Notes: a model not told the origin generated them from the sequence alone. Shown: positions 3,560-51,132, counted from the stretch's first letter. The stretch is 64,000 nucleotides of DNA from an uncultured bacterium (GCA_963851445.1 CAWKPH010000002.1:25716-89715); one strand, 5' to 3'. Translations and numbers: made by a program.

Positions 3560-3631
3560 TGGGAGATCGTCTAACGGTAGGACAGCGGCCTTTGAAGCCG
3601 TGAATCTAGGTTCGATCCCTAGTCTCCCAGC
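3560..3631 (+). tRNA. tRNA-Gln (anticodon UUG)
   Basis: Cloverleaf folded by hand: acceptor TGGGAGA/TCTCCCA with a U1:A72 pair and G73, D-stem GTC/GAC, anticodon stem GCGGC/GCCGT, loop CTTTGAA (anticodon TTG), T-arm CTAGG-TTCGATC-CCTAG. Confidence 0.8.
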
Positions 3632-4149
3632 AGACTTGGACAGGTCGCCAAATCGGCCATCAGCAGGAACGGTTTCGCGGCGCAGACGTTGAGTTTTCCA
3701 GCCGCCATCGTGGGGTTTGATGCAACGGTTTTCAGAATCATCCGCTTTTCGTCGTCGGGAGCGACGGAAAACCAATCCGCGGCCTGGTTGCAAAACGAAA
3801 TCAGCTGGCGCAAGGGTTTGATGCAATCCTCCGACTCCGCAGGCCCAGCAAGCTTTTCGGCAAATCGTCGCTGCTCTGCCTGAAGGGTCTCTCGCTGCAG
3901 GATAAATTCCTCATCAGTGAGTAGGTTGCGCAGCCGTAGGCTGGTGAGCTCACGGAGTTGTCCCTGAACGCTCTTGAGCGCCTTTTCCGCCAACGCGCGG
4001 CCGGCGACTAGTTCCGCCTTCAACTGGTCGTTGAGAAGTTCGAGGGTCGACGTCATCCAGTCATCGATACCCGGATCGGGGCGTACGCCGCCACAGGGCG
4101 CACCATTCTGCAGATCGACGCTGACACGCCAGTTGTTCTCTTTCGTTTG
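3619..4149 (-). pseudogene. C-terminal fragment of a large serine recombinase-like protein (coiled-coil region), GC-rich, no intact catalytic N-terminus
   Basis: Minus-strand frame is open 4149→3619. The translation 'LKAELVAGRALAEKALKSVQGQLRELTSLRLRNLLTDEEFILQRETLQAEQRRFAEKL' resembles the C-terminal coiled-coil of large serine recombinases. The stop overlaps the 3' end of tRNA-Gln, and the DNA is visibly GC-rich compared with the flanking sequence. Confidence 0.35.
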
Positions 4150-4851
4150 GCGGCCGACTCAGGAGAGTCGCCGATACAATCAATTGCAGTAGCCGACGAC
4201 GGCACCGTCTTTTTCTCCACCGAAAACCGGGTCTTTGCTCTGCTGGATGGGGGAGCGTTGTCGATCGTCAACAACAACGGGGGCGAGTTGCGGATCCGCG
4301 AGGGATACCTCTACGTGCTCAATCCAAAGGGCCCGCTCCTATTCCGGGTCAGTCCCACGTCGAAACAAATCTTCGCCGGAGGAGGTCAATGAAAATCGTC
4401 AGATTGCGACTGAGATCGGGACCAATTCAGCAGATTGAAGCGGGACCTCCGCCTCTCGAATCAAGCGGGTCGATTCTGCGTCAGGAGACGATCGAACCTG
4501 TCGACCATCGCCCACGCGAGTCTTTCGCGGAATGACATTGCTGCTTCTCTATCCTCGTCGTACGCGACACCAACAGACAGGTATTTTCTCACCGAGTCTC
4601 TGAGCGCGGTGTCCCCGACAAGGATTGCCGCGACATCATCTATAGATAGTGAATTGACGTCGTGTCTGTCCCGATCTGACTCCCCAGACACCGACGCAAA
4701 CCAGCTATCTATAGCAGCTTTGACGTCATGCCGCCTGCCCAGGGGATCATTGTTAATAATATTTGGAGAAGTATTCCTTTCGTAACTTTGCATTTGCCTA
4801 GAATGCTAACACGATTTTCAGTCTTCGGCGCCATCGATCGTGTGGACAGCA

Positions 4852-5493
4852 TTATCGCAAGCCAACATTATTTTTCCGATCGTTCGCCTTATCAAGGACG
4901 TCGCGCCGCGCCGCCGCGCTGCGGTCGCCAGTGTCCAGACCGCGCTGCCTATGATCGCCATTAATCGCAACGCGAATTGACCGAAGCGCCTCGGCGTAAA
5001 GTCCTCGACGTGCCTCATCCTGCGCCCACCGAAATTGTTCATAAGCATCCGTGGCGGAGGGATTCCTACCAATAACTACAAGATTGTTTATACCTTCATC
5101 CAACACCCCAAGACGTTCGGATAGATCACTGAAACCCCATTCCAAAGCCGAAACGATTTCGCGGCTTGAATCGCGGATCTCGGACTCGATACCGGAGAGG
5201 CCTTTGCGAACTGTGTTGTCAAGGTCGGTGATGCTCTCACGCACCTCCAGGTTTGTCCGCGCGACATCACTGAGGCGGCCCGAAAGCAATTCGTTTCCAT
5301 CGGCCATGTTTTTGGAAACCTGGAGTCCGATTTCCTTTAGATCATCTATGCTAGCCACAAGCTCTCTTGTTTGACGGTCGGCGATAAAGCCAATACCGCG
5401 CATCTGAAAGCGGTACCTCATCCATTGGGGATAGGTGAAATTAGTTTTGACGTTGTATTCGTAGTTGTACCTGAGGTCGTCAATAAAAGACAT
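4852..5493 (-). CDS. hypothetical protein (213 aa) within the GC-shifted island
   Basis: Intact ORF preceded by GGGAG about 8 nt upstream of the ATG on the minus strand. No family recognised. Confidence 0.35.
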   Translation of the reverse strand: MSFIDDLRYNYEYNVKTNFTYPQWMRYRFQMRGIGFIADRQTRELVASIDDLKEIGLQVSKNMADGNELLSGRLSDVARTNLEVRESITDLDNTVRKGLSGIESEIRDSSREIVSALEWGFSDLSERLGVLDEGINNLVVIGRNPSATDAYEQFRWAQDEARRGLYAEALRSIRVAINGDHRQRGLDTGDRSAAARRDVLDKANDRKNNVGLR

Positions 5494-5584
5494 TATCCGA
5501 TCTCCCAGAGAAATGTCGCTGTATAAAGTTCACTATCAACAGGTGGAAAATGGTGGCCAGTAATACACATTGTATACTGTGATC

Positions 5585-6025
5585 ATGTCTGAAGCACCGC
5601 GATTTACACGTGCTGTCGATCCGGAAAGTCGCCGCGAAGCGAGAGTCGAAGTTCTCAAGGGTCGTGTTGACGGAATCTTAGCGGGCACTTTTCTATTTGC
5701 GCAACGAACGATTGAGCAGCTCCAACAATACATGGCCGATCCCTCGGAGGTAAGCGCCACTGGCCAGGCGCCAGCTTGGATGAATGACGAGCTCATTCGA
5801 GAGTTGGCCCAGGCGGAGGTGAGAAATCAACTCACCCGCGCCAAAGACGTACTTGCGGCAGGCTACCCAGTTAACGCAGAGGCTTGGTTGCATGGAGTTG
5901 AGGAGCAAATCAAGTTGCATGAATCGCTTGGCCGTCTGACAGCTGAGGAGGCGGCGGACTTTGAGTCCGAAGTAGCGGAAATCAGAAATGGTCCGGACGA
6001 TCCGACCCAGGAGGACTCGGAATGA
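5585..6025 (+). CDS. hypothetical protein (about 147 aa), divergent from 4852–5493
   Basis: ORF track gives 5570–6025. A -10-like TATACT at 5572–5577 suggests a near-leaderless start at the second Met (5585). No family recognised. Confidence 0.3.
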   Translation: MSEAPRFTRAVDPESRREARVEVLKGRVDGILAGTFLFAQRTIEQLQQYMADPSEVSATGQAPAWMNDELIRELAQAEVRNQLTRAKDVLAAGYPVNAEAWLHGVEEQIKLHESLGRLTAEEAADFESEVAEIRNGPDDPTQEDSE

Positions 6026-6299
6026 TCCCAACGGTGGATATTGCATAAGGGAAAGGGTCTTGGATTCGTGTTCCGCCGCCGCTGATTGGGTCGTCGACCT
6101 GCACGCTCCGGTGATTCCGACGCGCCCTGGCAAAGACTTAGGTCGGTTCGCGCGGAACTAAGCCGCAATCGTATGCGCGTGACGCATAGAGCACCGTCGT
6201 GCGCCAAACGGCCACCGACCCCAAAATCAATCCGGACCTCCCGCGCATTCGGGAGCGCCGGAATGGTTCCGACGCTCCCGTCATGCACGGGAGATTTCA

Positions 6300-6506
6300 A
6301 TGAACAGTACAGTTCTTTCCAAGCCGCGGGCCGACGTGCACCAGGCCGTCACCGACAAGATCATCACCGCCATCGAAGCGGGTGCCGGGGAGTTCGTCAT
6401 GCCTTGGCATCACAAGGGGCCAGCCAACGGCGGACAGGGTGGTGCGTCGGCCACGACCGGCTTCCCATACACAAGCCCATCCGGCGAGGAGAGCGCCATA
6501 GCCTGA
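6300..6506 (+). pseudogene. N-terminal fragment of an ArdC-like (antirestriction, DUF1738-type) protein
   Basis: 'SKPRADVHQAVTDKIITAIEAGAGEFVMPW' matches the conserved ArdC N-terminal pattern (DVYQ.VTD.II.A.E.G…PW). The reading frame then degenerates and stops after 68 aa. The DNA is very GC-rich. Confidence 0.45.
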
Positions 6507-6681
6507 TCGAGGTGGTTTGCGATGACTCCAAGCCCCTTCGGGCGTTGAGGGGGTGCCGGAAGATTGCCTGGTGCATCGAGGTCCCATGGCGAATAACCAA
6601 ACGGTGGCAATCAATTTCCAGGAGACCATATTGGTATCAACCGGCAATGACAACAATTGAGAGATATGTTAACTTTTCACT

Positions 6682-7131
6682 ATGGAATCATCACCTGATA
6701 CGAACGGTCCTAGTCCACGTACAAGGAAGGAAGATACAAAGTCAAAGCGCGCTTTAAGCTATGCGGCCGTTTCGGTTGCATTATTGCTATTGATAATCCT
6801 TACTGTCGGTGGATATATTCTACGCTCGTCATATTACCAACAAAAGCCAGCTGTAGATGTACAGACACTAAATCATTTTGTATGTCGTAGCTCGACATAT
6901 TCGATCTCCGTCTTCAATAATGGAAATGCGACGGGCGTATCGCTGGATGCGCCATCGGGACCAGTGACATTCTTAGGTCAAATTGGACCGGGTAACTATT
7001 TCACTCCCGAATCAGTTATCCCGTCTAGCTATATATCGTATTTATCGGAGCTGGGGACGTGCAAAAACTCCGATGGCTTGACGTTTTATCAAGTCTACAA
7101 GAGCGTTTCTACGAGCACATTGTCTCATTGA
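6682..7131 (+). CDS. hypothetical membrane-anchored protein (low-GC ORF embedded between GC-rich segments)
   Basis: 149 aa with one N-terminal TM helix (LSYAAVSVALLLLIILTVGGYIL) and then a Ser/Thr-rich domain. The composition matches the host-like low-GC DNA. Confidence 0.4.
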   Translation: MESSPDTNGPSPRTRKEDTKSKRALSYAAVSVALLLLIILTVGGYILRSSYYQQKPAVDVQTLNHFVCRSSTYSISVFNNGNATGVSLDAPSGPVTFLGQIGPGNYFTPESVIPSSYISYLSELGTCKNSDGLTFYQVYKSVSTSTLSH

Positions 7132-8115
7132 GCGAATGAAATAAGGGCCGCCTATTGCAGGGCTAATCCGAACGATTGGACGGGATCTGAAAAGCGGGGC
7201 GCTGTCCGGGGCGGAAGCTTTAGACTACCTGGAACCTCGGCCCCGCCAGGACGGCTGGTGCCCCGCGCCAGTTCTCGAATGGGCTGATAGCTAGCCCGCT
7301 ACCATGCCTGCCACCGAAGCCGGCCATTGCGGCGATGAATTGGCCAGCGGCTGCGGGGCTGGCGGCAAGACCTTGGACCTGCTCCGCAGGATCAATCACT
7401 GTGGTCCCGCCGCTACCGTCAAGGGTGGTGACGACTAAGCGGGGGTTGGCCTCGCCCTGGGTCCATTCGGACTTGCCGACGACGCGGCGTCGGGTACTCC
7501 AGCTCTTGCGAGTGGTCCGCATGAAGTCCTTGAAGCGGCGGACCGGCTGAGACGCCGCTCTCCCGGAGGCACCCTTCATCATGACGTTCATATCCGTCCC
7601 ATCCGTAGGTGACCATGCACTCATCGCGGGTTGAGCAAAGTGTTCGGAAACCACACCTGCCTAGATTCCGGTCGGTTTTCACACTAGCTGCGAACGCTTT
7701 GAGCGTGGCAAGGGGCTGTTGTTGTCGAGTAGCTCGGCCCCTTCTCGTCTGACGAGCTCAGAGAACTTTTTATTGAGAAAGGAATAAGTTATTCAAATGA
7801 GGATCTCAATGAGATTATTTATCCACTGATTGAAAAGTATTTAGCAGCCGGATATGCCATAGCGATTGACGCTAACTGTTCAAGAGTAGTGGGTAATACT
7901 CTTACCGGTGATAACTTCCGAGAATTTCAATCTCGAGCAGAGATGGAAAATACCGGCTTATCTGTCATAAAATATGGAAAACGCCATAAAGGAAACTCGT
8001 GGTACGTATGGACGTATAACGACCATGCTCACTTAGGCTAGAAGCATTCTGGATACTTTTAGAAAGCCATCTTCTAATAATAAAAACGTCCCCGGATTTA
8101 AAGCCGGAGACGCGG

Positions 8116-19438: not shown

Positions 19439-20353
19439 ATGAAACTCTCTCCTGTAATAGCTGTACTCATCGTCATTTTTGTACTTTTCATAGCAGGGCT
19501 TTTCTACTTTGTATTCACACCCAAGGCAGCCGCACCGACAGTTGCGACGAGTACGCCACCTGCGCTGCAAAATAGCATCACGTACTCGTGTGACGCAGGA
19601 ACCGTTAAAGCTTCGTATGAGAATAATTCAGTCATGATTCAACTCTCTGATGGACGTGCATTCACGCTCCCACAAACTCAATCGGGTTCAGGCATACGTT
19701 ACGAATCAAGCAGTACGCCCGATGATATTGTTTTTTGGAGCGAGGGAAACAATGCCTTTATCACGGAAAACGGTACAACCACCTATAGCAATTGTGTCGC
19801 GAATACCGGAACAACAAATTCAAGCACCGCTTCAAGCACCAGTACATTTACTGATCAAGGTAAGACGTTCAGTTTCGTCTACCCGACCCAATTCATCGTT
19901 TCTGGAAATGGCGTCGGGTATTCGACCGACTGGATGCTAAACACGCAGACCTCGGGCATCGTGCTAGCAAAGCTCACGATCCCAAGCTCTTTTCAATCGG
20001 AGACTAATTTTGTTGGTGCAACTCTTACCGTTGGCACAAGTGCAGATCCAACTGCGCTATTACAATGCAAAACTTCTGCAGGAAGCGGTGGGCCAGCTCC
20101 GGAGAAAAGTACTGTCATAATTAACGGTATTATCTTTACGAAATTCGTTTCTACAGATGCAGCTGCAGGTAATGAGTATATGACCACGAGCTATCGTACG
20201 ATTCGAAATAACCAATGCTACGCGCTCGAATATACTATTCATTCAGCGAATATCGAAAATTACCCACCAGGATCAGGGATTAAGACCTTTAACCAGATCC
20301 AAGTACAGAGCACACTCGAGAATATCGTACAAAGCTTCAGATTCTTACCATAG
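19439..20353 (+). CDS. membrane-anchored protein with an N-terminal MliC-like (lysozyme-inhibitor fold) domain and a C-terminal domain shared with 23823–24518
   Basis: TM anchor, then 'ITYSCDAGTVKASYENNSVMIQLSDGRAFTLPQTQSGSGIRYES…VFWSEGNNAFITENGTTTYSNC', the MliC pattern (Y.C…SASG.RY…W.KG..A…C). The C-terminal 'FSFVYPTQF…QCYALEYTIHSANIENY…IVQSFRFLP' is paralogous to 23823–24518. Confidence 0.55.
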   Translation: MKLSPVIAVLIVIFVLFIAGLFYFVFTPKAAAPTVATSTPPALQNSITYSCDAGTVKASYENNSVMIQLSDGRAFTLPQTQSGSGIRYESSSTPDDIVFWSEGNNAFITENGTTTYSNCVANTGTTNSSTASSTSTFTDQGKTFSFVYPTQFIVSGNGVGYSTDWMLNTQTSGIVLAKLTIPSSFQSETNFVGATLTVGTSADPTALLQCKTSAGSGGPAPEKSTVIINGIIFTKFVSTDAAAGNEYMTTSYRTIRNNQCYALEYTIHSANIENYPPGSGIKTFNQIQVQSTLENIVQSFRFLP

Positions 20354-20444: not shown

Positions 20445-20972
20445 ATGGACCAGGATACTTCCCAAGCTCAATTCCTCCAGATTTATGACCTGTATGTACA
20501 GGATATATTCCGGTTCTGCGTTTTCAAGGTGAGTAGTCGCGAATTGGCGGAGGATCTGACTCAGGAGGTATTCACCCGGTATTGGCAAAGTATTCGTGCT
20601 GGTACCACTATCGTGAATGATCGCGCATTTCTTTATACGCTTGCGCGAAATCTCATCATCGATTGGTACCGTAAAAAAAAGGATTTGTCGCTTGAGGTCC
20701 TTACCGATGCTGGGTTTGAATTCCAGAGCAAGGACCATCAATCGATTACCATGAGTGCAGAGGTAAATGAAATACTACGGGTCGTGAACATTCTTGATGA
20801 GCATTCGCGCGAAGTCATGCTTCTACGCTTTGTTGAGGGATTTTCGCCAAGTGATATTGCCAAGATACGCGGAGAGACAGCGAATACTGTCTCAGTCCGT
20901 ATCAATCGGGCGATCAAAAAAGTTCAAGAACATATTCACGTTCAGGGCGATGGAAAGAAAGAAATATACTAG
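20445..20972 (+). CDS. ECF-type RNA polymerase sigma factor (sigma-70 region 2 and region 4)
   Basis: 'LAEDLTQEVFTRYWQSI…LARNLIIDWYRKK' is region 2; 'LLRFVEGFSPSDIAKIRGETANTVSVRINRAIKKV' is the region 4 HTH. Confidence 0.8.
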   Translation: MDQDTSQAQFLQIYDLYVQDIFRFCVFKVSSRELAEDLTQEVFTRYWQSIRAGTTIVNDRAFLYTLARNLIIDWYRKKKDLSLEVLTDAGFEFQSKDHQSITMSAEVNEILRVVNILDEHSREVMLLRFVEGFSPSDIAKIRGETANTVSVRINRAIKKVQEHIHVQGDGKKEIY

Positions 20973-25533: not shown

Positions 25534-26550
25534 ATGGAACTCACAAAGGTTGAGAGACTCATCCGACTGGTCAGACGCAACCTCCCCCACCTACATTCGG
25601 GGAAAGTTCGCGAATCGTTTCAACTGCCAAGCGTTGGGAACACCCGTATGCGTTTGGTTATCGTGACCGACCGGCGAAGCATTTTCGACTTCAAGCTCGG
25701 GTTTGTCGTGCCAGGTGTTGGCATGGTGCTCAACGCTACGAATATCTACTACCGGTCATTGCTCGACAATGCGGGGATCAAGCACGACCTCATTGCCTCT
25801 GGCGTTGCGATCGACGAACATCTTAAGTCCTCACCAAAGCTTTGCGGAATTCCAGAGCTTTGGAAACGGGCTATTGTCGTGCGTGAACTCGAGATGATCC
25901 CGGTAGAATGCATCGCTCGAAATTATCTTACCGGTAGCGGCTGGGAGCAGTACGAGGAGCACAATGGGATCGTCTGCGGTCACCAGTTGCCCCCAGGTCT
26001 TCTCAACGGATCAAAGCTTCCCGAGTTTATTTGTACGCCCTCAACCAAGGCCCTGGTGGGGCATGATATGCCCATACCTATTCAGGATTTTCGCGTAGAT
26101 TACCCGGCGTACCTTGAGGAAAAGACTCTCGAGGTTATGGGTCTAGTTCGCGACGACGTACAACACCTCGGCACGTTCATCTGCGCCGATGGAAAGGCCG
26201 AAGGTGGCATCGATCCAGAGTCTGGAGAATTCAGGTGGGGGGACGAGATAGGCACTCCCGATGCCTGCCGAGTTTGGAATACCGCTGAGTACAGGGAGGC
26301 CTGGCCTGCGAAGCTTCCATCGCCCTACGATAAGGAGCTTATACGGAATTGGGGCCGAGAATTGGGCGTACACAAACTCGATCCAAAGAGCCCGAAGGAT
26401 CAAAGGTATGTGAGGGCTTTACGCCCATCCGAGGACCAGATCTACCCCATGGGTCTTCGCTATCTCAATTATTTCTTCCGTACGAAGCACATGACTCTCG
26501 TAGAATATCAAAACGAGCGTATGGGCATTCCGAGAGAAATGTGCGGGTGA
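25534..26550 (+). CDS. purC: SAICAR synthetase-family protein (PurC-like, long form)
   Basis: 'SGKVRESFQL…RLVIVTDRRSIFDF' matches the SAICAR synthetase N-terminal ATP-grasp-like signature (GKVRD…TDR.SAFD). No other pur genes are in this window. Confidence 0.55.
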   Translation: MELTKVERLIRLVRRNLPHLHSGKVRESFQLPSVGNTRMRLVIVTDRRSIFDFKLGFVVPGVGMVLNATNIYYRSLLDNAGIKHDLIASGVAIDEHLKSSPKLCGIPELWKRAIVVRELEMIPVECIARNYLTGSGWEQYEEHNGIVCGHQLPPGLLNGSKLPEFICTPSTKALVGHDMPIPIQDFRVDYPAYLEEKTLEVMGLVRDDVQHLGTFICADGKAEGGIDPESGEFRWGDEIGTPDACRVWNTAEYREAWPAKLPSPYDKELIRNWGRELGVHKLDPKSPKDQRYVRALRPSEDQIYPMGLRYLNYFFRTKHMTLVEYQNERMGIPREMCG

Positions 26551-33437: not shown

Positions 33438-34028
33438 TTACTGCGGCGTTGGACCAGCGACTGCCGCTGCCGGGTTACCCTGCATTTGGGTAACCGAGCC
33501 GCCGGTTGGCTGGTAAAAGGCGGCTTGGCCCCTTTTCAACCGTTCTCCGTCCGAATGGGGATACTCATCGATCCCCGTCGCGTGGAGGAGGATACAGTTG
33601 ATCCTCGTTTGGTACTGGTTGGCGTTGGCCAGATTGTGACCGTTGAAATAGCCCAGAACGCCGCCGTAAGCAGCACCTCCGAGCCCAACGGCGATAACGC
33701 CGTTGTGAACGATCCCCGCGCCCAAAACGCCGGCCTGCGTGACCACCTGAGCGGCCGCGCCGGCCCCATTGCTGACGGCGCCGTTCCAGACGTTGGCGGC
33801 CGTGATTCGGCCGCGCGGAAACATTTCCTTGGCGACTTGCGTACACCGAGGCTTCGCCGCGTCCTGATCTGCGACGACCGCAGTGGTCAGACGCTCTCCG
33901 GTGCGGACGAAGTACGGGTCGGTCTTCGGGTAGGGATTGGCAACCAGCCAACCAAAGGGGTCGGCGTGCGCTGACCCCGCGGTGAACGTCATCGCCGCCA
34001 TGGCGATGAGAACAAATTTGGTATTCAT
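33438..34028 (-). CDS. GC-rich ORF: secreted glycine-zipper (Omp/17-kDa-antigen-like) protein
   Basis: Signal peptide 'MNTKFVLIAMAAMTFTAGSAHA', then 'GAGAAAQVVTQAGVLGAGIVHNGVIAVGLGGAAYGGVLGYFNG' (glycine-zipper motif). Strong AAGGAG RBS 8 nt upstream. Codon and GC content are visibly different from neighbouring genes. Confidence 0.5.
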   Translation of the reverse strand: MNTKFVLIAMAAMTFTAGSAHADPFGWLVANPYPKTDPYFVRTGERLTTAVVADQDAAKPRCTQVAKEMFPRGRITAANVWNGAVSNGAGAAAQVVTQAGVLGAGIVHNGVIAVGLGGAAYGGVLGYFNGHNLANANQYQTRINCILLHATGIDEYPHSDGERLKRGQAAFYQPTGGSVTQMQGNPAAAVAGPTPQ

Positions 34029-45615: not shown

Positions 45616-45691
45616 GGGCCCATAGCTCAGCTGGTAGAGCATCTCATTTGCAATGAGAGGGTCAGGAGTTCGAGTCTCCTTGGGTCCACCT
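45616..45691 (+). tRNA. tRNA-Ala (anticodon UGC)
   Basis: Acceptor GGGCCCA/TGGGTCC with the G3:U70 Ala identity pair, anticodon stem TCTCA/TGAGA, loop TTTGCAA, T-arm GGAGTTCGAGTCTCC, discriminator A. Confidence 0.85.
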
Positions 45692-45776
45692 TAGCGACAG
45701 AATACTTGACAAAAAGTAGTACAATGCTATTGTTTATTAGCATTCGCCACTGTTCCTTGTCATAAGGGCTACAACT

Positions 45777-46172
45777 ATGATCCGCGTTACTCAACAAAGG
45801 CCGCCCGCGCACATCCAGCGGCACGGCGAGCACGACTGCACCACGATTGTTCACATCCATGAGCACACTCGCTCATTCGGCCTCAAACGGGCACAATTTC
45901 TTGGTCACAGACAAGTGGGCATCATCAAAGCGACGCTCAATGCCTTGACCGCCATTCCCTGCGAGGGTGAACTTAAGATTACCGCCACGAGAAAATCTGG
46001 GGCATCCGCCATCGGCGACATCTACACCTGGGATCCACATTCTTTGCGCGTCGCCCAGGAAGCCGTGTCACTCATCCGGGATGATCTTCGAATTTTGATG
46101 TCTCTTGACCTCGGCGAGCTCCAGCTGCAGATCAGTTGTTCCCTCGAAAGAAAACTCAAGGTCGCCGCCTAG
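45777..46172 (+). CDS. hypothetical protein (131 aa), GC-richer than neighbours, immediately downstream of tRNA-Ala
   Basis: ORF with an upstream TTGACA-16-TATTGT and a GC-rich terminator downstream. No family recognised. Confidence 0.3.
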   Translation: MIRVTQQRPPAHIQRHGEHDCTTIVHIHEHTRSFGLKRAQFLGHRQVGIIKATLNALTAIPCEGELKITATRKSGASAIGDIYTWDPHSLRVAQEAVSLIRDDLRILMSLDLGELQLQISCSLERKLKVAA

Positions 46173-46192
46173 GACTAAACACCCTGACGTGC

Positions 46193-46224
46193 AAAGCCGC
46201 CCAGGCTCTCGGGCGGCTTTTTGT
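46193..46224 (+). terminator. rho-independent terminator
   Basis: AAGCCGCCC-AGGCTCTC-GGGCGGCTT followed by TTTTG. Confidence 0.6.
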
Positions 46225-46359
46225 TCTCACTTTCCCTCAAGTCCATGGGTTCGAGGATTTGGCAACTTAATTGAAAGAATTTTATTCCCATCATTTGCGA
46301 GAGTTTTCCTAAAGAGTTCCAAGGAAGCCCTTAGACGTTCGCCTGCTATACTACCCCAT

Positions 46360-47820
46360 ATGCTAAAACGTGAGGAAGAGAAACTCCTTGACTTCATACA
46401 CACCGAGCACAAGAAAGGCTACACCAAGAAGGAGATACGAGAAGCACTTATAGCTAATGACTTCTCTCCTAAGGACATAGACCCTTCTCTCAACAAGGTA
46501 TTTAAAAGAAAGAGAAGACACCATACACAAAAACTCCTCGTACCCCTCACACTCCTTCTCTTTGTCCTCATAGCAGGCTGGTGGCTCTACACCCACCATG
46601 CGTCATCCAGTGACACACAGAATACTCTGGGATCTACACTTGCTACCCCTGAGGGGAATACTGGATCTTCTGGTCCTACAGAAGAATCAATCACAACGCA
46701 ACCAATCGGCTTCGCAAGCCTTGATGGCGGTACAACTGGTGGAAATCCAAACAATATATGTCATGTGAGCTCCATGACTGAAGCGGCTCTTGCTACCTGT
46801 GCTGAAGCATCCAATTCAAGCACTGTGGTTTTTGACACTCCCGGTACGATTGTCCTCACCTCACCTATAGACATAACCTCAAATAAGACGATAGAAGGGC
46901 CAGTGACAATAGAAGGACAATCCAATCTTTTTCAAATACGAGGACAGAGTAACATCATCATACGAAATATCTATTTTGAAAATCTTCCAGGACTTGTTGT
47001 TCCTCCCTCGATTAGTGGGCTGTCAGCAGCCAGTACTTGTCCAGATACTTCTACATATCTGACGAAGGGTCTCGGAGGCTCTAATCTTGAAGGATGCGGA
47101 AACGAAATACGCATATTGGGTGGAGTTACTTCCGATAGTCAGAATATATGGATAGATCACGATTCCTTTAGAGCTTGCGGTGATAAATGTATCGCGGTTG
47201 GTGTTGGAACCAGCGGTCTAGATCCTTCTACTGGAAAATATTACAGTGGAACTTTAGTATCAATATCAAATAGCATTTTTAAAGACAGTTGGTTTGCTGT
47301 CGCTATTGATACTGCTACTGGAGGACCAATGGGCGCCATCCCAATCAATGAACAACCAAACTCCATGGTAACGCTGTACGGTAATTTATTTAGTGAAGTA
47401 AATAGACGTAGTCCCCGTGTCTCCGGTGCCGGTTCTTGGGCACACGTCTTTAACAACGTCATTCAATACTGGGGTGGATTTGACAGCAGTACGGGTGATG
47501 GATATGGATTCGGACCTTCTTCAAATGATTCAGCGCAATTGTTACTAGAAGATAACTACCTTCGTGCGTGGCCAAGTCCAAATGCCTGTCAAGAAGCAGA
47601 CGATCTTATCAACCAAAGATGCAAGGTAACCGATCCAATTCAATCTAAAGGAGTCCCTGCAGGTTACATACGAGCAACAAACAACTTTTTAGCAAACAGT
47701 GCTACCGATCAGGAAAACGGTCCCTCAGTGGTATTCACTCCGCCCTACAGTTACAGTCCGCTCGACCCATTAACCACACTCAATTCAGTTATCGCTAATG
47801 CTGGAGTTATTACAAATTGA
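46360..47820 (+). CDS. membrane-anchored right-handed beta-helix protein of the pectate lyase (PL1-like) family
   Basis: TM helix 'LLVPLTLLLFVLIAGWWLY'. 'IWIDHDSF', 'NRRSPRVSGAGSWAHVFNNV' (the R-P-R…HV-NN pectate-lyase motif) and repeated 'I.G..N..I.N' beta-helix rungs. Start taken at ATG 46360; the ORF track's 46105 extension overlaps the upstream terminator. Confidence 0.6.
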   Translation: MLKREEEKLLDFIHTEHKKGYTKKEIREALIANDFSPKDIDPSLNKVFKRKRRHHTQKLLVPLTLLLFVLIAGWWLYTHHASSSDTQNTLGSTLATPEGNTGSSGPTEESITTQPIGFASLDGGTTGGNPNNICHVSSMTEAALATCAEASNSSTVVFDTPGTIVLTSPIDITSNKTIEGPVTIEGQSNLFQIRGQSNIIIRNIYFENLPGLVVPPSISGLSAASTCPDTSTYLTKGLGGSNLEGCGNEIRILGGVTSDSQNIWIDHDSFRACGDKCIAVGVGTSGLDPSTGKYYSGTLVSISNSIFKDSWFAVAIDTATGGPMGAIPINEQPNSMVTLYGNLFSEVNRRSPRVSGAGSWAHVFNNVIQYWGGFDSSTGDGYGFGPSSNDSAQLLLEDNYLRAWPSPNACQEADDLINQRCKVTDPIQSKGVPAGYIRATNNFLANSATDQENGPSVVFTPPYSYSPLDPLTTLNSVIANAGVITN

Positions 47821-47861
47821 GCTTGTATTTTTCGATCCACGAATAATTTTTTGCAGAAAAC

Positions 47862-47890
47862 TTGACATATATTATATAGTGTGCTAATCT
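47862..47890 (+). promoter_or_regulatory. sigma70-like promoter TTGACA-17-TAATCT followed by two palindromes (ACGGATTGAATCCGT at 47896–47910; CCCATTCTGGG at 47911–47921)
   Basis: Read directly from the sequence. The palindromes lie between the -10 and the GGGAGG RBS of 47951–48583. Confidence 0.45.
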
Positions 47891-47950
47891 TACAAACGGA
47901 TTGAATCCGTCCCATTCTGGGATTTTAACTGGCCGGGAGGCCTACATAAT

Positions 47951-48583
47951 ATGAGTGAAGAGACTTCTGTCGTCTGCGCCGAGGAAATGAGCGGCGCTAC
48001 CCTCGATCTGGATGTCAAGGCGCTGGTGCTGGTGAAGTTCACCGTGGGCAACTCGCTTCTCGTTCCCCGCGGCATTCGCGAGGTCGACCGTGCGCCGGAC
48101 ATCAAAATCGACATGCGCCATCGCCTCGCCGGCCTGAAGCTGGAGCTCGGGGCGCACGCCACGCGTACCGGACGGTTCCGGGAGGGTCGCGTCGACACCG
48201 GCGTCCCAGTGATCAAGGATCTCGGGCTTTCTCAGGCGGCACTCATGCTCCGCGGGCTGTCGAACAACGATTTCAGGTTGATCGATCTCCACTATTTCGA
48301 GAAGCCGGGGGAGCGCCGGCCCAAATTCGTGATCGTGGGGAGTTACTCCCCCTGGGAAAAGGACGAACCGCTCGAACTCACCGACAAGGTGCTCGAGGCG
48401 CTTCGGACTCTGTCCAGGGAGACCTGGCAGTTTTGCACGGTCTGGGACAACCCGGACTGCTCTGTAACGATCAACTTCGGCGACCGGGCGCCCGACGCCA
48501 AGCCGAGGCAGGCAATCCGTGTCCAAAACCGCAGGATCGTGTCGACGTCGGTCACGGACTTCGTGACCGAAGAGGAGGAATAA
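47951..48583 (+). CDS. GC-rich ORF, hypothetical protein (210 aa)
   Basis: GGGAGG RBS 10 nt upstream. High GC across the ORF only; AT-rich promoter and terminator flanks. No family recognised. Confidence 0.4.
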   Translation: MSEETSVVCAEEMSGATLDLDVKALVLVKFTVGNSLLVPRGIREVDRAPDIKIDMRHRLAGLKLELGAHATRTGRFREGRVDTGVPVIKDLGLSQAALMLRGLSNNDFRLIDLHYFEKPGERRPKFVIVGSYSPWEKDEPLELTDKVLEALRTLSRETWQFCTVWDNPDCSVTINFGDRAPDAKPRQAIRVQNRRIVSTSVTDFVTEEEE

Positions 48584-48609
48584 AACCTCCCACTCATCAA
48601 ACCAACTTA

Positions 48610-48652
48610 TACGACCGGAGTCCTATTTATGGGACCCGGTCGTACTTTTTTT
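48610..48652 (+). terminator. rho-independent terminator (convergent with truD)
   Basis: ACGACCGG…CCGGTCGT stem followed by CTTTTTTT. Confidence 0.55.
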
Positions 48653-48667
48653 CGTAGTAAAATAATT

Positions 48668-50101
48668 CTAAATTTCTTCTAACTGACCAAGAAATCCGTC
48701 CTCTTTGGAATGGATCACTTCTTTGAATCTCTCGAGCAGTGGTGTGATCGGAGTTTCTCCGAGGGTAGCTTTTGCATCAACACGTTCAACCGAAAAATAT
48801 TCAGGAGGAACTCCCCCAACTAAATTAAACATATGCGACAGCATTGTTGTTGCATATTGACCTTTATCTAAATCAAACTCGAAGACTATACCTTCGTCGA
48901 CCAATTCGGCTTTATGAAAACGGACATTGCTGTGCGTAGGTGTACTGCGAGAACGAAGAACAATTTGAGGAAAAGGTCGTAGGTTGTGGAAAGGAGGAGG
49001 AAAGATACCGAGCTTCTCCAACATTGGTCGGTAGAGGTCCTGATCACGGCGATCCTTGCTTAGGAAGAAGGGTAAGGTATCAGGCATAGGTTCACCCCGA
49101 TTCAAATACTCAGAGAGCTTCTTGTTAAATAGAATGGATGACAGTGCATAGAGCCAGAAGGTGATCTGCTCAGGTATAGCTTGCAGCGCACCAGGGAAAT
49201 CTTGAGGATTCTGTCGTAAATGATCGACTACTAACAACTCCTGCTCAAAAATAAGAGGGAAATCTAAAAGAGTTTTATATACAGCATTCCAATCGGGAAT
49301 TTTTGCTTTTAACGATCTACGCATTTCCTGGAAATAGGGAATTTCTCGTGAACCAGCAAAGGTCAAGAAGTCGCAGACGGCATCCTCATATTTGCCCTGG
49401 AGAATAAGTCTGGCCCAGTGGAAATTACGTAACCGAGAGACCCCAAAGCGCTGTAGGTAGAAGAAATTAGCAAAACCATGTTCTTTTACATCCTGTAGAT
49501 AATTTGCAAAATGCGAGAAACGTTCAGGATCGAAAAATGATCGTTCAGTGCGCACAAGGATTGTAAAACGATTTCCCTCGAGATTCCCTCGTTCTGCAAT
49601 TCCATTACCGCTCACAATTTCTTTAAGAAAATAATATGGCGAACGAAGAGTACTGACCGACTGAAGATTAGACTTTCGAATAGAGATTTTTTGAGCCGTA
49701 ATGGCATTTTTATCCTTAAGACCAGCAAAACTAACATCCTTTTCCTGAATGCCTAGTGATCGTGAAATGTCAGTCGCTGCCTCAAAAGTTGAAATATTAC
49801 ACTTAACCAAGGTTGCGTATATTGTTGGTGTTTTTTCTAAGGATTCGAGATCCGATTCTCCACCTAGATCAATAGTACGGATTGCAGAATCAATACGTTC
49901 TTCGACGATGAAATCCTCGGGCCAAAGTTTTATGAGTCCCTGCGGAAATGAATTCTTATGCGGAATATCAATACCAAATTCCGAAAGGGTGGCACCATCC
50001 TCAATATGTGAATGTTCCAAGAATAATTCCGGATGCTCTTTGCTAAGGCCTTGTAGTAATTTAAGTTCTGCTTTTTTACGCTCAAATCGATCAGGAGGCA
50101 T
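48668..50101 (-). CDS. truD: tRNA pseudouridine(13) synthase TruD-family protein
   Basis: 'LIKLWPEDFIVEE' and 'AGLKDKNAITAQ' (catalytic Asp in the GxKD motif) are TruD hallmarks. Confidence 0.7.
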   Translation of the reverse strand: MPPDRFERKKAELKLLQGLSKEHPELFLEHSHIEDGATLSEFGIDIPHKNSFPQGLIKLWPEDFIVEERIDSAIRTIDLGGESDLESLEKTPTIYATLVKCNISTFEAATDISRSLGIQEKDVSFAGLKDKNAITAQKISIRKSNLQSVSTLRSPYYFLKEIVSGNGIAERGNLEGNRFTILVRTERSFFDPERFSHFANYLQDVKEHGFANFFYLQRFGVSRLRNFHWARLILQGKYEDAVCDFLTFAGSREIPYFQEMRRSLKAKIPDWNAVYKTLLDFPLIFEQELLVVDHLRQNPQDFPGALQAIPEQITFWLYALSSILFNKKLSEYLNRGEPMPDTLPFFLSKDRRDQDLYRPMLEKLGIFPPPFHNLRPFPQIVLRSRSTPTHSNVRFHKAELVDEGIVFEFDLDKGQYATTMLSHMFNLVGGVPPEYFSVERVDAKATLGETPITPLLERFKEVIHSKEDGFLGQLEEI

Positions 50102-50118: not shown

Positions 50119-51132
50119 CTAACTACCAGGATAGTACTTCTTTAGAAGCGCGACATGCTCCGCATAGGTATCGGAACAATGGAATCTGCCATAGGAGTCA
50201 TGGAAATAGTAGAGACAGGAAGTTTGCACAGGATTAAGTGCTGCAAGTACTGCCGCTACTGATGGTTCAGCAATAGGCCCAGGTGGAAGCCCTGGATTCA
50301 TGTAGGTGTTGTAAGGAGACTTAATGTATTTATCTTTTGGTAGTACTTCCTGCCACCAATTTCCCTCTTTATTCTCACCCATTGCGTATTGAAGCGTTGC
50401 ATCAATCTGTAGATTCATGTTGTCGAATAGTCGGTTCCAGATAATGCCCGAGATAATGCGCATATCAGTTGGACCTGCGGCTTCACGCTCAAGAAGCGAG
50501 GCCACGATCAAAGTCTCGTTGAGAGGCACAAGAGACGCTGTTGTTGGACTATAGTGGTCAGCAACTGTCTCGTCGAAGCGTATGCCCATTAAAGCTGCGA
50601 CGTTGGAAGGAGTCATTGAATCATCAACGACATACGTTCCAGGAGCAAACATCCCGTCTGTGATTCCTGGTGTCTGTGCATCTACCGCTGCAAGGAATTG
50701 CTTTTGTTGCGTTGTATTCCAATTGAGTGCCCGTGTAAGCTGTGAAAGTATTTCTTCTTTGCGATATCCTGGAAGGACGGTAATTAGATGACCATCTGCG
50801 GCAGCAAGTGATTGATATAAGCTTGTATTATCAATGAGCGCAGCGATCTGAATCAAAACCTCTCTCACATCCCCTACAGAGGCTGTAAGAGTATTGTTTT
50901 GAGTCTGCTCATTGAAAAAAGCATCAGCCTTTGGATTATCGACAATGCTTTTTGTCGCCGGATCTACTGAGACAGGAAAGACTGCAACAGTGGTCGGGGA
51001 ATTTGCGGGCTGCAATAGCGACATGCTTTCCAAATGAATGTGTGCAATCTCAATTTGCGGCAGGATAAAGGTTGTACAGCCTCCAATAATGCAAAGGAGG
51101 GCAACTACGGTAAGAATTCGCGCCCTATCCAT
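50119..51132 (-). CDS. mltG: endolytic murein transglycosylase MltG/YceG family
   Basis: TM anchor, 'IVASLLEREA', 'ISGIIWNRL…LQIDATLQY', 'SPYNTYMNPGLPPGPIAEPS', 'LYYFHDSYGRFHCSDTYAEH'. Start taken at the internal Met (MDRARIL). The ORF track extends to 51231. Confidence 0.75.
   Translation of the reverse strand: MDRARILTVVALLCIIGGCTTFILPQIEIAHIHLESMSLLQPANSPTTVAVFPVSVDPATKSIVDNPKADAFFNEQTQNNTLTASVGDVREVLIQIAALIDNTSLYQSLAAADGHLITVLPGYRKEEILSQLTRALNWNTTQQKQFLAAVDAQTPGITDGMFAPGTYVVDDSMTPSNVAALMGIRFDETVADHYSPTTASLVPLNETLIVASLLEREAAGPTDMRIISGIIWNRLFDNMNLQIDATLQYAMGENKEGNWWQEVLPKDKYIKSPYNTYMNPGLPPGPIAEPSVAAVLAALNPVQTSCLYYFHDSYGRFHCSDTYAEHVALLKKYYPGS

Follow-up and report, generated by a model that had tools for sequence, protein, structure and literature searches.

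A GC-rich gene kept convergent with truD in Patescibacteria encodes an orphan protein family and an mRNA with an excess of predicted folding

Results

Organization of the locus

The window (the whole 64-kb stretch of DNA that was analyzed) contains a GC-rich open reading frame for a 210-residue protein of an orphan family, referred to here as FAM, which is followed in the opposite orientation by truD, the gene for the 477-residue tRNA pseudouridine synthase D (Table 1). An earlier note on this DNA had described a GC-rich ORF with a promoter, a pair of palindromes, a GGGAGG ribosome-binding site, and a terminator hairpin, and we located every one of these features in the sequence, the ORF having 62% GC in a window of 47% GC. 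As the note had proposed, the gene makes up a single self-contained transcription unit with a promoter, ribosome-binding site and terminator of its own. The best match to the TruD of the window was that of a Candidatus Kaiserbacteria MAG (57% TruD identity), indicating that the window derives from a Patescibacterium. No FAM paralog was found elsewhere in the 64-kb window.

Table 1. Features of the FAM–truD region, with positions counted from the first nucleotide of the window.
Feature	Position	Strand	Evidence and details
tRNA-Ala	45616-45690		Ancestral neighbor of the FAM promoter
Lineage-specific insert, outside the FAM unit	45706-47820	+	Comparison with L009
131-residue ORF in the insert	45777-46172	+	
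Pectate-lyase-like ORF in the insert	46105-47820	+	Pfam PF00544, E = 4.6e-10
Terminator in the insert	46193-46220	+	Promoter/terminator scan, which also found a promoter
Promoter of the FAM gene	47862-47890	+	-35 TTGACA 47862-47867, 17-nt spacer, -10 TAATCT 47885-47890; read from the sequence
Twin leader hairpins HP1 and HP2	47896-47922	+	RNA folds
Hairpin GGCC-GGGA-GGCC with the Shine-Dalgarno sequence	47931-47942	+	RNA folds; GGGAGG 47935-47940, 10 nt before the ATG
Coding sequence of the 210-residue FAM protein	47951-48583	+	ORF call; ATG start, TAA stop
Intrinsic terminator common to the FAM gene and convergent truD	48610-48652	+	Scan
truD (tRNA pseudouridine synthase D)	48668-50101	-	Pfam PF01142, E = 9e-58; GC3 0.351

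At L009, the orthologous locus closest to that of the window, the FAM promoter directly adjoins Pterin-4a and tRNA-Ala, whereas in the window 2.2 kb (45.7-47.85 kb) separates tRNA-Ala from that promoter. Relative to L009, the truly variable DNA of the region is the 2.2-kb insert 5′ of the FAM gene and not the gene itself. There is also an antisense ORF of 194 residues (47942-48526) in the codon-aligned frame relative to the FAM gene, and since a scarcity of TTA, CTA, and TCA codons is enough to keep this frame open, we regard it as a by-product of the high GC content at third codon positions (GC3).

The protein family and its predicted fold

The product had been described previously as lacking a known domain, and this was borne out by searches of Pfam, NCBIfam, PADLOC and PHROGs, none of which gave a match, and by a Pfam scan of 66 family members, which returned nothing. 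A role in anti-phage defense, for which the earlier note had suggested a search, was rejected, as 0 PADLOC families were reported at E ≤ 1 and the context is one of housekeeping genes. A word-indexed search with the FAM protein returned two homologs; an exhaustive HMMER search (E ≤ 1e-3) identified 155 representative clusters, most of them with 190–240 residues, and a query with the consensus sequence retrieved 81 family members, those with names being each a “hypothetical protein” from MAGs of Patescibacteria, Parcubacteria or Paceibacterota. Searches of the literature turned up no account of the family. Domain fusions were considered and rejected, as the longer members differ only by low-complexity N-termini or coiled-coil inserts, and one sequence (P0100) was set aside as a spurious repeat protein.

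Alignments of the family revealed the motifs VLVKF..P.G, an arginine-rich loop GRxRxGRVDTG, LRRGL.N, and W.NP....T.NF, with K29, D54, R75, R77, R80, D82, T83, N167, T173, and N175 as conserved residues. The acidic C-terminal tail (EEEE or EExE) is confined to the subfamily of the window (9 of 65 sequences). The median pI of the family is 8.6 and the protein of the window is acidic (pI 5.6). FAM is clearly a real protein under constraint of its own.

An AlphaFold model built from an 80-sequence alignment (pLDDT 93.3, pTM 0.88) has a beta-alpha-beta-beta-beta-alpha topology followed by four strands. Comparison of the model with the PDB by Foldseek gave no match (best E = 0.56, TM 0.16), nor did comparison with BFVD (best E = 0.14), while a profile search of the PDB with the family produced chance hits only (best E = 0.27) and hhalign detected no relation between the family and TruD. 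The structure prediction and profile search that the earlier note had suggested thus point to a family of ~200–240 residues with a confidently modeled alpha+beta fold and, among the PDB and BFVD entries, no solved or viral structural relative. A VOC/glyoxalase-like beta-alpha-beta-beta-beta fold, which recurred among the weak hits, was rejected, there being no significant structural superposition.

Association with truD and distribution

All eight family members for which contigs were fetched are arranged tail-to-tail with truD, with the remaining neighbors varying from contig to contig. A wider survey was then anchored on TruD, for which 80 species-representative loci were fetched, and the 68 loci of CPR (Patescibacteria) species in which the sequence downstream of truD extended for 800 bp or more served as the denominator. 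The FAM gene was identified in 60 of these 68 loci, rising to 63 with an iterated HMM, and all 60 first-round hits were convergent to truD, mostly at a distance of 50–100 bp. No FAM gene was found downstream of truD in the seven archaeal loci, and no homologs were found in viral contigs, phages, or plasmids. The earlier note had taken this gene for apparently foreign DNA and had suggested scoring its presence and absence; with 63 of 68 Patescibacteria species carrying it in convergent arrangement next to truD, its occurrence is the reverse of patchy, and homologs are widespread in related genomes, a finding that the note itself had named as counting against its reading.

The divergence of the family correlates with that of TruD (Mantel r = 0.42, a value reached by 0 of 999 permutations). 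The same nearest neighbor was obtained with TruD and with the family gene for 22 of 64 loci, from alignments that are noisy (mean identity 21%); mean identity was 0.21 for the family vs. 0.36 for TruD. We conclude that the FAM gene is most probably vertically inherited, that it is near-universal among the Patescibacteria checked, and that its genomic tie to truD is conserved. As a convergent arrangement is unusual for functionally coupled bacterial genes, the link to TruD may be regulatory or simply historical. As a separate observation, eight population contigs of P0002, which had been picked by exact protein identity, carried 0 SNPs in the gene vs. 24 in its flanks, a difference that is uninformative given this selection.

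The GC shift as a trait of the family

The earlier note was correct in that the composition of the FAM gene deviates from that of its host. Its GC content of 0.619 vs. 0.469 for the window was equaled in just 2 of 1268 windows of equal length, and by codon position the values are 0.635, 0.417, and 0.806 for GC1, GC2, and GC3, respectively, compared to a mean GC3 of 0.455 (SD 0.088) for the other ORFs of the window, so that the excess resides mainly at third positions.

This deviation recurs throughout the survey. The family gene exceeded truD in GC at 60 of 61 non-redundant loci (mean difference +0.129; GC3 +0.24) and was GC-richer than the rest of its locus at 59 of the 61, and by our reading of the table the excess was present at 23 of the 24 loci with the best-scoring homologs (E ≤ 1e-20). 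Weak homologs (E of 1e-5 to 1e-10) were detected partly via residues that have GC-rich codons. Ranked by GC3 among ORFs of at least 120 residues, the family gene came top at 44 of 60 loci and within the top two at 53, and in nearly every species its third-position GC lies ~0.18–0.24 above that of the neighboring genes. The GC3 of the family gene nonetheless tracks that of its neighbors (r = 0.64, with a logit offset of ~0.9), which suggests that the gene equilibrates in place, to a higher GC, unlike foreign DNA that is unameliorated.

The family gene also has a higher GC3 than the rplJ, rplL, ATP synthase, and frr genes of the same loci (0.39–0.43 for the ATP synthase genes of the window). With ribosomal-protein and ATP synthase genes exceeded in this manner, codon bias linked to expression is insufficient to explain the shift. 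Whether G or C is the class that rises at third positions varies by lineage. GC-richness is a conserved trait of this family and not a sign of transfer.

Promoter, leader hairpins, and terminator

The FAM promoter has an extended -10 TG (47882-47883), although it was missed by a consensus scan because its -10 hexamer agrees with the consensus at only three of six positions. The layout TTGAC(A)-N14-TGnTAnnnT recurs 5′ of the orthologs at L009, L001, L020, L018, L019, and many other loci. Downstream of the -10 are the two adjoining palindromes, ACGGATTGAATCCGT at 47896-47910 and CCCATTCTGGG at 47911-47921. When perfect palindromes were counted with arms of at least 7 and a spacer of 0 or 1, 13 were observed in the window vs. 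8.6 ± 3.3 in shuffles, and ~0.008 would be expected per 60-nt leader.

As RNA, the first palindrome contains HP1 (CGGAU-UGA-AUCCG), which begins ~6 nt after the -10 and is predicted to lie at the 5′ end of the mRNA, given a putative transcription start. It is adjoined by HP2 (UCCCA-UUC-UGGGA, 47910-47922). L009, whose protein is 59% identical, keeps HP1, HP2, and the hairpin enclosing the Shine-Dalgarno sequence, with changes in the HP2 loop and one outer pair and with the Shine-Dalgarno hairpin GGCC-GGGA-GGCC identical. An analogous GGCC...GGCC hairpin surrounds the Shine-Dalgarno sequence at L020 and L087, and a short GC hairpin lies immediately 5′ of that sequence at many further loci. At L018 and L019 (~35% identity) the 5′-terminal hairpin is kept with a UUGAA(A) loop on stems that are different and longer, and further GC hairpins follow, while the L001 leader has an unrelated hairpin. 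The stability of the 5′ leader alone was not significantly above that of shuffles (z = -0.7 to -2.1).

The earlier note had left a choice between a repressor operator and a 5′-UTR hairpin for the palindromes, and had suggested searching for a cognate HTH regulator. No HTH gene flanks the FAM unit, either here or in the other loci fetched, and the operator is unsupported for this reason. Conservation of the palindromes among orthologs, by which the note had set store, differed from locus to locus: the core GGATTGAATCC is kept in L009, where the outer C:G pair is replaced by A/A, and is absent from L001, while L018 and L019 retain pairing and not sequence. That the stems of L018 and L019 keep pairing on different sequences favors RNA hairpins over a DNA operator. 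The reading that fits best is that the palindromes behave as RNA hairpins of the 5′ leader that are kept as structures in orthologs.

The terminator between the two genes has perfect 9-nt arms (48610-48618 and 48636-48644) and four inner pairs, followed by a T7 run (48646-48652). A strong GC hairpin was present in the spacer between the family gene and truD at 52 of 54 loci, with medians of 68 nt for spacer length and -25 kcal/mol for MFE.

Folding of the mRNA

Coding sequences of the family fold more stably than permutations of their synonymous codons, a null model in which protein and codon usage are unchanged, in 62 of 65 species. The mean z of the family gene by this measure was -3.15, with 43 of 65 genes below -2, in comparison to a mean z of -0.45 for truD controls of the same length (paired Wilcoxon p = 7e-11). 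Dinucleotide-preserving shuffles gave a comparable separation (z = -3.69 for the family vs. -0.21 for truD). The excess was larger on the sense than on the antisense strand (z = -3.70 vs. -2.32; 24 of 30, p = 4e-5), which implicates the mRNA rather than the DNA or an antisense RNA.

In five of eight groups of close relatives, the consensus fold was better than that of codon-column shuffles. No helix is conserved family-wide in the mRNA, the highest mean pair probability being 0.15, leading us to regard the signal as one of generic structure and not of a defined RNA fold. An Rfam structured RNA was rejected as a candidate, since the only matches, whether in gathering mode or at E ≤ 1, were tRNAs. 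When metagenomes were scanned for closer relatives to be used in a covariation analysis, distant ones only were returned.

The copy in the window is a modest representative of the family: its z was -1.9 to -2.2, 3 of 100 synonymous shuffles were as stable, and the consensus fold of its group is weak (z = -1.7). It ranks seventh of the 57 ORFs of the window by folding z (background -0.46 ± 1.18) and, at an MFE of -0.436 kcal/mol per nt vs. ~-0.27 typically, is the second most stably folded. As to the combined trait of GC3 and folding, the ORF at 33438-34028 and purC are the other genes of the window noted as sharing it.

Discussion

Our preferred explanation, to which we assign a probability of roughly 0.7 as a whole, is that FAM is a vertically inherited, truD-linked gene of the CPR that is subject to selection for a structured mRNA and whose protein has an RNA-related role. 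The gene is maintained as a transcription unit of its own that faces truD tail-to-tail, with the predicted hairpin terminator common to both. Transcription from the near-consensus extended -10 promoter would produce a leader of small GC hairpins ending in a strong Shine-Dalgarno sequence, and the order of synonymous codons gives the sense mRNA far more predicted pairing than chance. Selection on synonymous sites may favor a compact, GC-rich, and RNase-resistant transcript, presumably long-lived and abundantly translated, and the 5′-terminal stem-loop together with the strong 3′ hairpin would aid its stability. The protein, usually basic, most likely binds RNA or a nucleotide through its arginine-rich loop GRxRxGRVDTG and conserved Asp/His residues, and it probably acts in the same process as TruD, that is, tRNA or RNA maturation. 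Our guess is that FAM is an RNA- or nucleotide-binding partner in truD-related RNA maturation and that its mRNA is long-lived.

There are precedents for parts of this scheme. The E. coli ompA leader and the B. subtilis aprE and ermC leaders stabilize their mRNAs by 5′ stem-loops, and the FAM mRNA resembles them in its predicted hairpin near the 5′ end, strong 3′ terminator hairpin, strong ribosome-binding site, monocistronic organization, and probable abundance. It differs from them in that the coding region is also GC-enriched and over-folded, in that these properties are conserved across the phylum, and in that stabilization is putative here. With regard to the protein, some tRNA-modification enzymes have accessory subunits, such as the Trm112 and Trm82 partners. 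FAM is likewise a small protein whose gene is tied to that of a tRNA-modifying enzyme, and its conserved basic loop might serve in RNA binding; unlike those partners, to which it has no relation in sequence or fold, its gene is convergent and not operonic, and an interaction with TruD is hypothetical.

It is feasible, although we consider it unlikely, that the GC3 excess was produced by GC-biased gene conversion or by repeated homologous replacement among Patescibacteria, and not by selection on the mRNA, with the additional folding following as a by-product. Codons that end in G are enriched, as are those that end in C, the family changes rapidly (mean identity 0.21 vs. 0.36 for TruD), its nearest neighbors agree with those of TruD at only 22 of 64 loci, and the Mantel correlation is just 0.42, all as such a process would have it. 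Neither native folding beyond that of same-composition shuffles nor the sense-strand bias is explained in this way, and among donors drawn at random some would be expected to have a lower GC than the host, whereas the difference is positive at 60 of 61 loci.

A further possibility, which we hold to be doubtful, is that of a dual-function RNA, in which a base-paired transcript is itself selected for and is bound or packaged by its own protein, exerts antisense or interference effects on the convergent truD, or acts jointly with the protein on truD or tRNA maturation. Structured-coding and dual-function RNAs are represented by RNA-phage genomes, SgrS, and RNAIII, and the FAM coding sequence is similar to these in folding well beyond composition-matched controls; it differs in being chromosomal and DNA-encoded and in having helices that vary between lineages. 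A folding z of about -3 to -4 is unusual for an mRNA, the effect is on the sense strand, structure is partly conserved within close groups, and the pairing with truD is kept phylum-wide while other neighbors change. However, there is no family-wide helix and no Rfam match, a strong terminator stands between the two genes at nearly all loci, and there is clear constraint on the protein itself. If true, such a phylum-wide RNA-plus-protein unit would be a new CPR-specific ribonucleoprotein or regulatory module.

We judge it to be quite improbable that the GC3 shift simply reflects translational codon bias of the usual kind, as in genes that are expressed at a very high level. High expression would accord with the near-consensus character of the promoter and with the strength of the Shine-Dalgarno sequence and the terminator, and the GC3 of rplL, rplJ, atpD, and frr is somewhat above average at some loci, but the family gene exceeds the ribosomal-protein and ATP synthase genes everywhere tested, the ATP synthase genes of the window are not elevated in GC3, the rise in G3 or C3 differs by lineage, and folding in excess of codon-preserving shuffles cannot result from codon bias.

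Recent acquisition of a foreign single-gene cassette under host-like control elements, with the palindromes as a repressor operator, is extremely improbable, because the compositional contrast (GC 0.62 vs. 0.47, GC3 0.81 vs. 0.455), the 15-bp perfect palindrome that closely follows the -10, and the mere two close homologs of the word-indexed search, which had made it attractive, are outweighed by the same position of the family in 63 of 68 CPR species, a GC excess in 60 of 61 species that scales with host GC, divergence that correlates with that of TruD, borders with neither mobility genes nor repeats (the flanks being the pectate-lyase-like gene and truD), no phage, plasmid, or viral homologs and no PHROGs match, no adjacent HTH gene, and leader hairpins at L018 and L019 that keep pairing on different sequences. 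The gene does share with horizontally acquired GC-shifted islands a sharp local deviation in GC and GC3 with clean borders, here at its promoter and terminator, but it is unlike them in its phylum-wide conservation of position, its lack of mobility genes, and the way in which its composition follows that of the host. The real island of the window (3.6–7.7 kb, next to tRNA-Gln and with a transposase fragment) has no folding excess (z ~0), whereas the FAM family has one.

The Patescibacteria account for a large share of bacterial diversity, have tiny genomes, and possess many conserved genes that are unexplained, and thousands of hypothetical CPR proteins exist. An early origin and vertical inheritance have been described for CPR-enriched families of unknown function, 106 families in all, which are mostly membrane or pilus related (Meheust et al., 2019; PMC6744442). 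FAM is comparable to these families in being widespread in CPR/Parcubacteria, apparently confined there, annotated as hypothetical only, and best accounted for by such an origin and mode of inheritance, and it differs from most of them in being cytoplasmic. A tie to truD, a GC3 excess, and an excess of mRNA folding are absent from those of its passages that were searched.

FAM is unusual in its combination of a phylum-wide lock to truD, a confidently predicted fold that is unmatched, and a phylum-wide signal at synonymous sites. For the interpretation of Patescibacteria genomes, the lesson is that a sharp spike in GC alone is not evidence of horizontal transfer. Under the explanation we prefer, a vertically inherited gene with selection for a structured mRNA, the family would provide a clear-cut natural system in which to study how selection acts on the structure of bacterial mRNAs and on bacterial GC content, and its traits point to a factor of importance that is probably abundant and has a connection to RNA biology.

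Apparently acquired and inserted segments

The earlier note had read the GC-rich island at the tRNA-Gln gene as apparently foreign DNA, and we concur that it looks acquired: in addition to its composition and a transposase-like fragment within it, its ORFs show no excess of mRNA folding relative to synonymous-codon shuffles (z ~0; negative values denote mRNAs more stable than the shuffles).

A unit of promoter (TTGACA-16-TATTGT, with an extended TG), 131-aa ORF and strong terminator follows tRNA-Ala. The unit is missing from L009, the closest orthologous locus, and it had no match in Rfam, nor its ORF in Pfam; excess mRNA folding was not found (z = +1.6). Between tRNA-Ala and the GC-rich 210-aa orphan-family gene (the family gene) lies a pectate-lyase-like ORF, the N-terminal part of which, as called, overlaps the preceding terminator, and its real start is therefore probably further downstream. 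Since L009, L001 and the other loci have no such ORF at the corresponding position, it is a lineage-specific insertion.

The L001 genome varies within its population, some variants carrying an inserted segment of ~4.5 kb between ddl and a 427-aa gene. Besides small ORFs, the inserts in L004 and L005 encode a 538-aa large serine recombinase (Resolvase). This variation, at a distance of a few kb from the family gene, resembles polymorphism for a mobile element. ARAGORN called a 90-nt tRNA-Gly(GCC) at 50215-50304 (+), inside the yceG ORF region; the call had no Rfam support and is thus probably a false positive.

Features of the window and of the inserts in two relatives' loci
Feature	Position	Strand	Remarks
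GC-rich island	3560-7700		GC 0.53-0.62; starts at tRNA-Gln
tRNA-Gln	3560-3631		5' border of island
DDE-transposase-like fragment	7220-7654		PF13701, E = 1.3e-7, below gathering score; inside island
ORF	19439-20353	+	z = -3.6
ORF	20445-20972	+	z = -3.7
purC (SAICAR synthetase)	25534-26550	+	GC3 0.60; z ~-3
196-aa ORF	33438-34028	-	GC3 0.73
tRNA-Ala	45616-45690		immediately 5' of promoter-ORF-terminator unit
Promoter-ORF-terminator unit	45706-46225	+	
131-aa ORF	45777-46172	+	GC3 0.65
Pectate-lyase-like ORF, 571 aa	46105-47820	+	PF00544, E = 4.6e-10
Strong terminator	46193-46220	+	3' of 131-aa ORF
Insert, L004	64-4171		
Insert, L005	2310-6418		

Composition of truD and mRNA folding elsewhere in the window

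Both in the window (48668-50101, minus strand) and in L001-L089, the convergent partner of the family gene, truD, consistently ranks with the most AT-rich genes nearby (GC3 of 0.351 vs. 0.455 in the window and 0.25 vs. 0.40 in L011), and the contrast with its GC-rich partner is therefore exaggerated. The sole locus in which the family gene is not convergent with and downstream of truD is L090, a short contig (2.5 kb) of Candidatus Sungiibacteriota, where it lies upstream on the same strand (926-1636).

The family gene is not alone in this genome in its excess mRNA folding, since purC and two further ORFs of ordinary GC3 are also over-folded. The 196-aa ORF, another of the GC-shifted cassettes of the earlier note, encodes a product with a signal-peptide-like segment at its N-terminus and no Pfam match. 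Its mRNA is more stable than the synonymous shuffles (z = -3.4 to -3.5), and this GC-rich ORF may therefore have the over-folded-mRNA trait in common with the family gene, rather than being of foreign origin.
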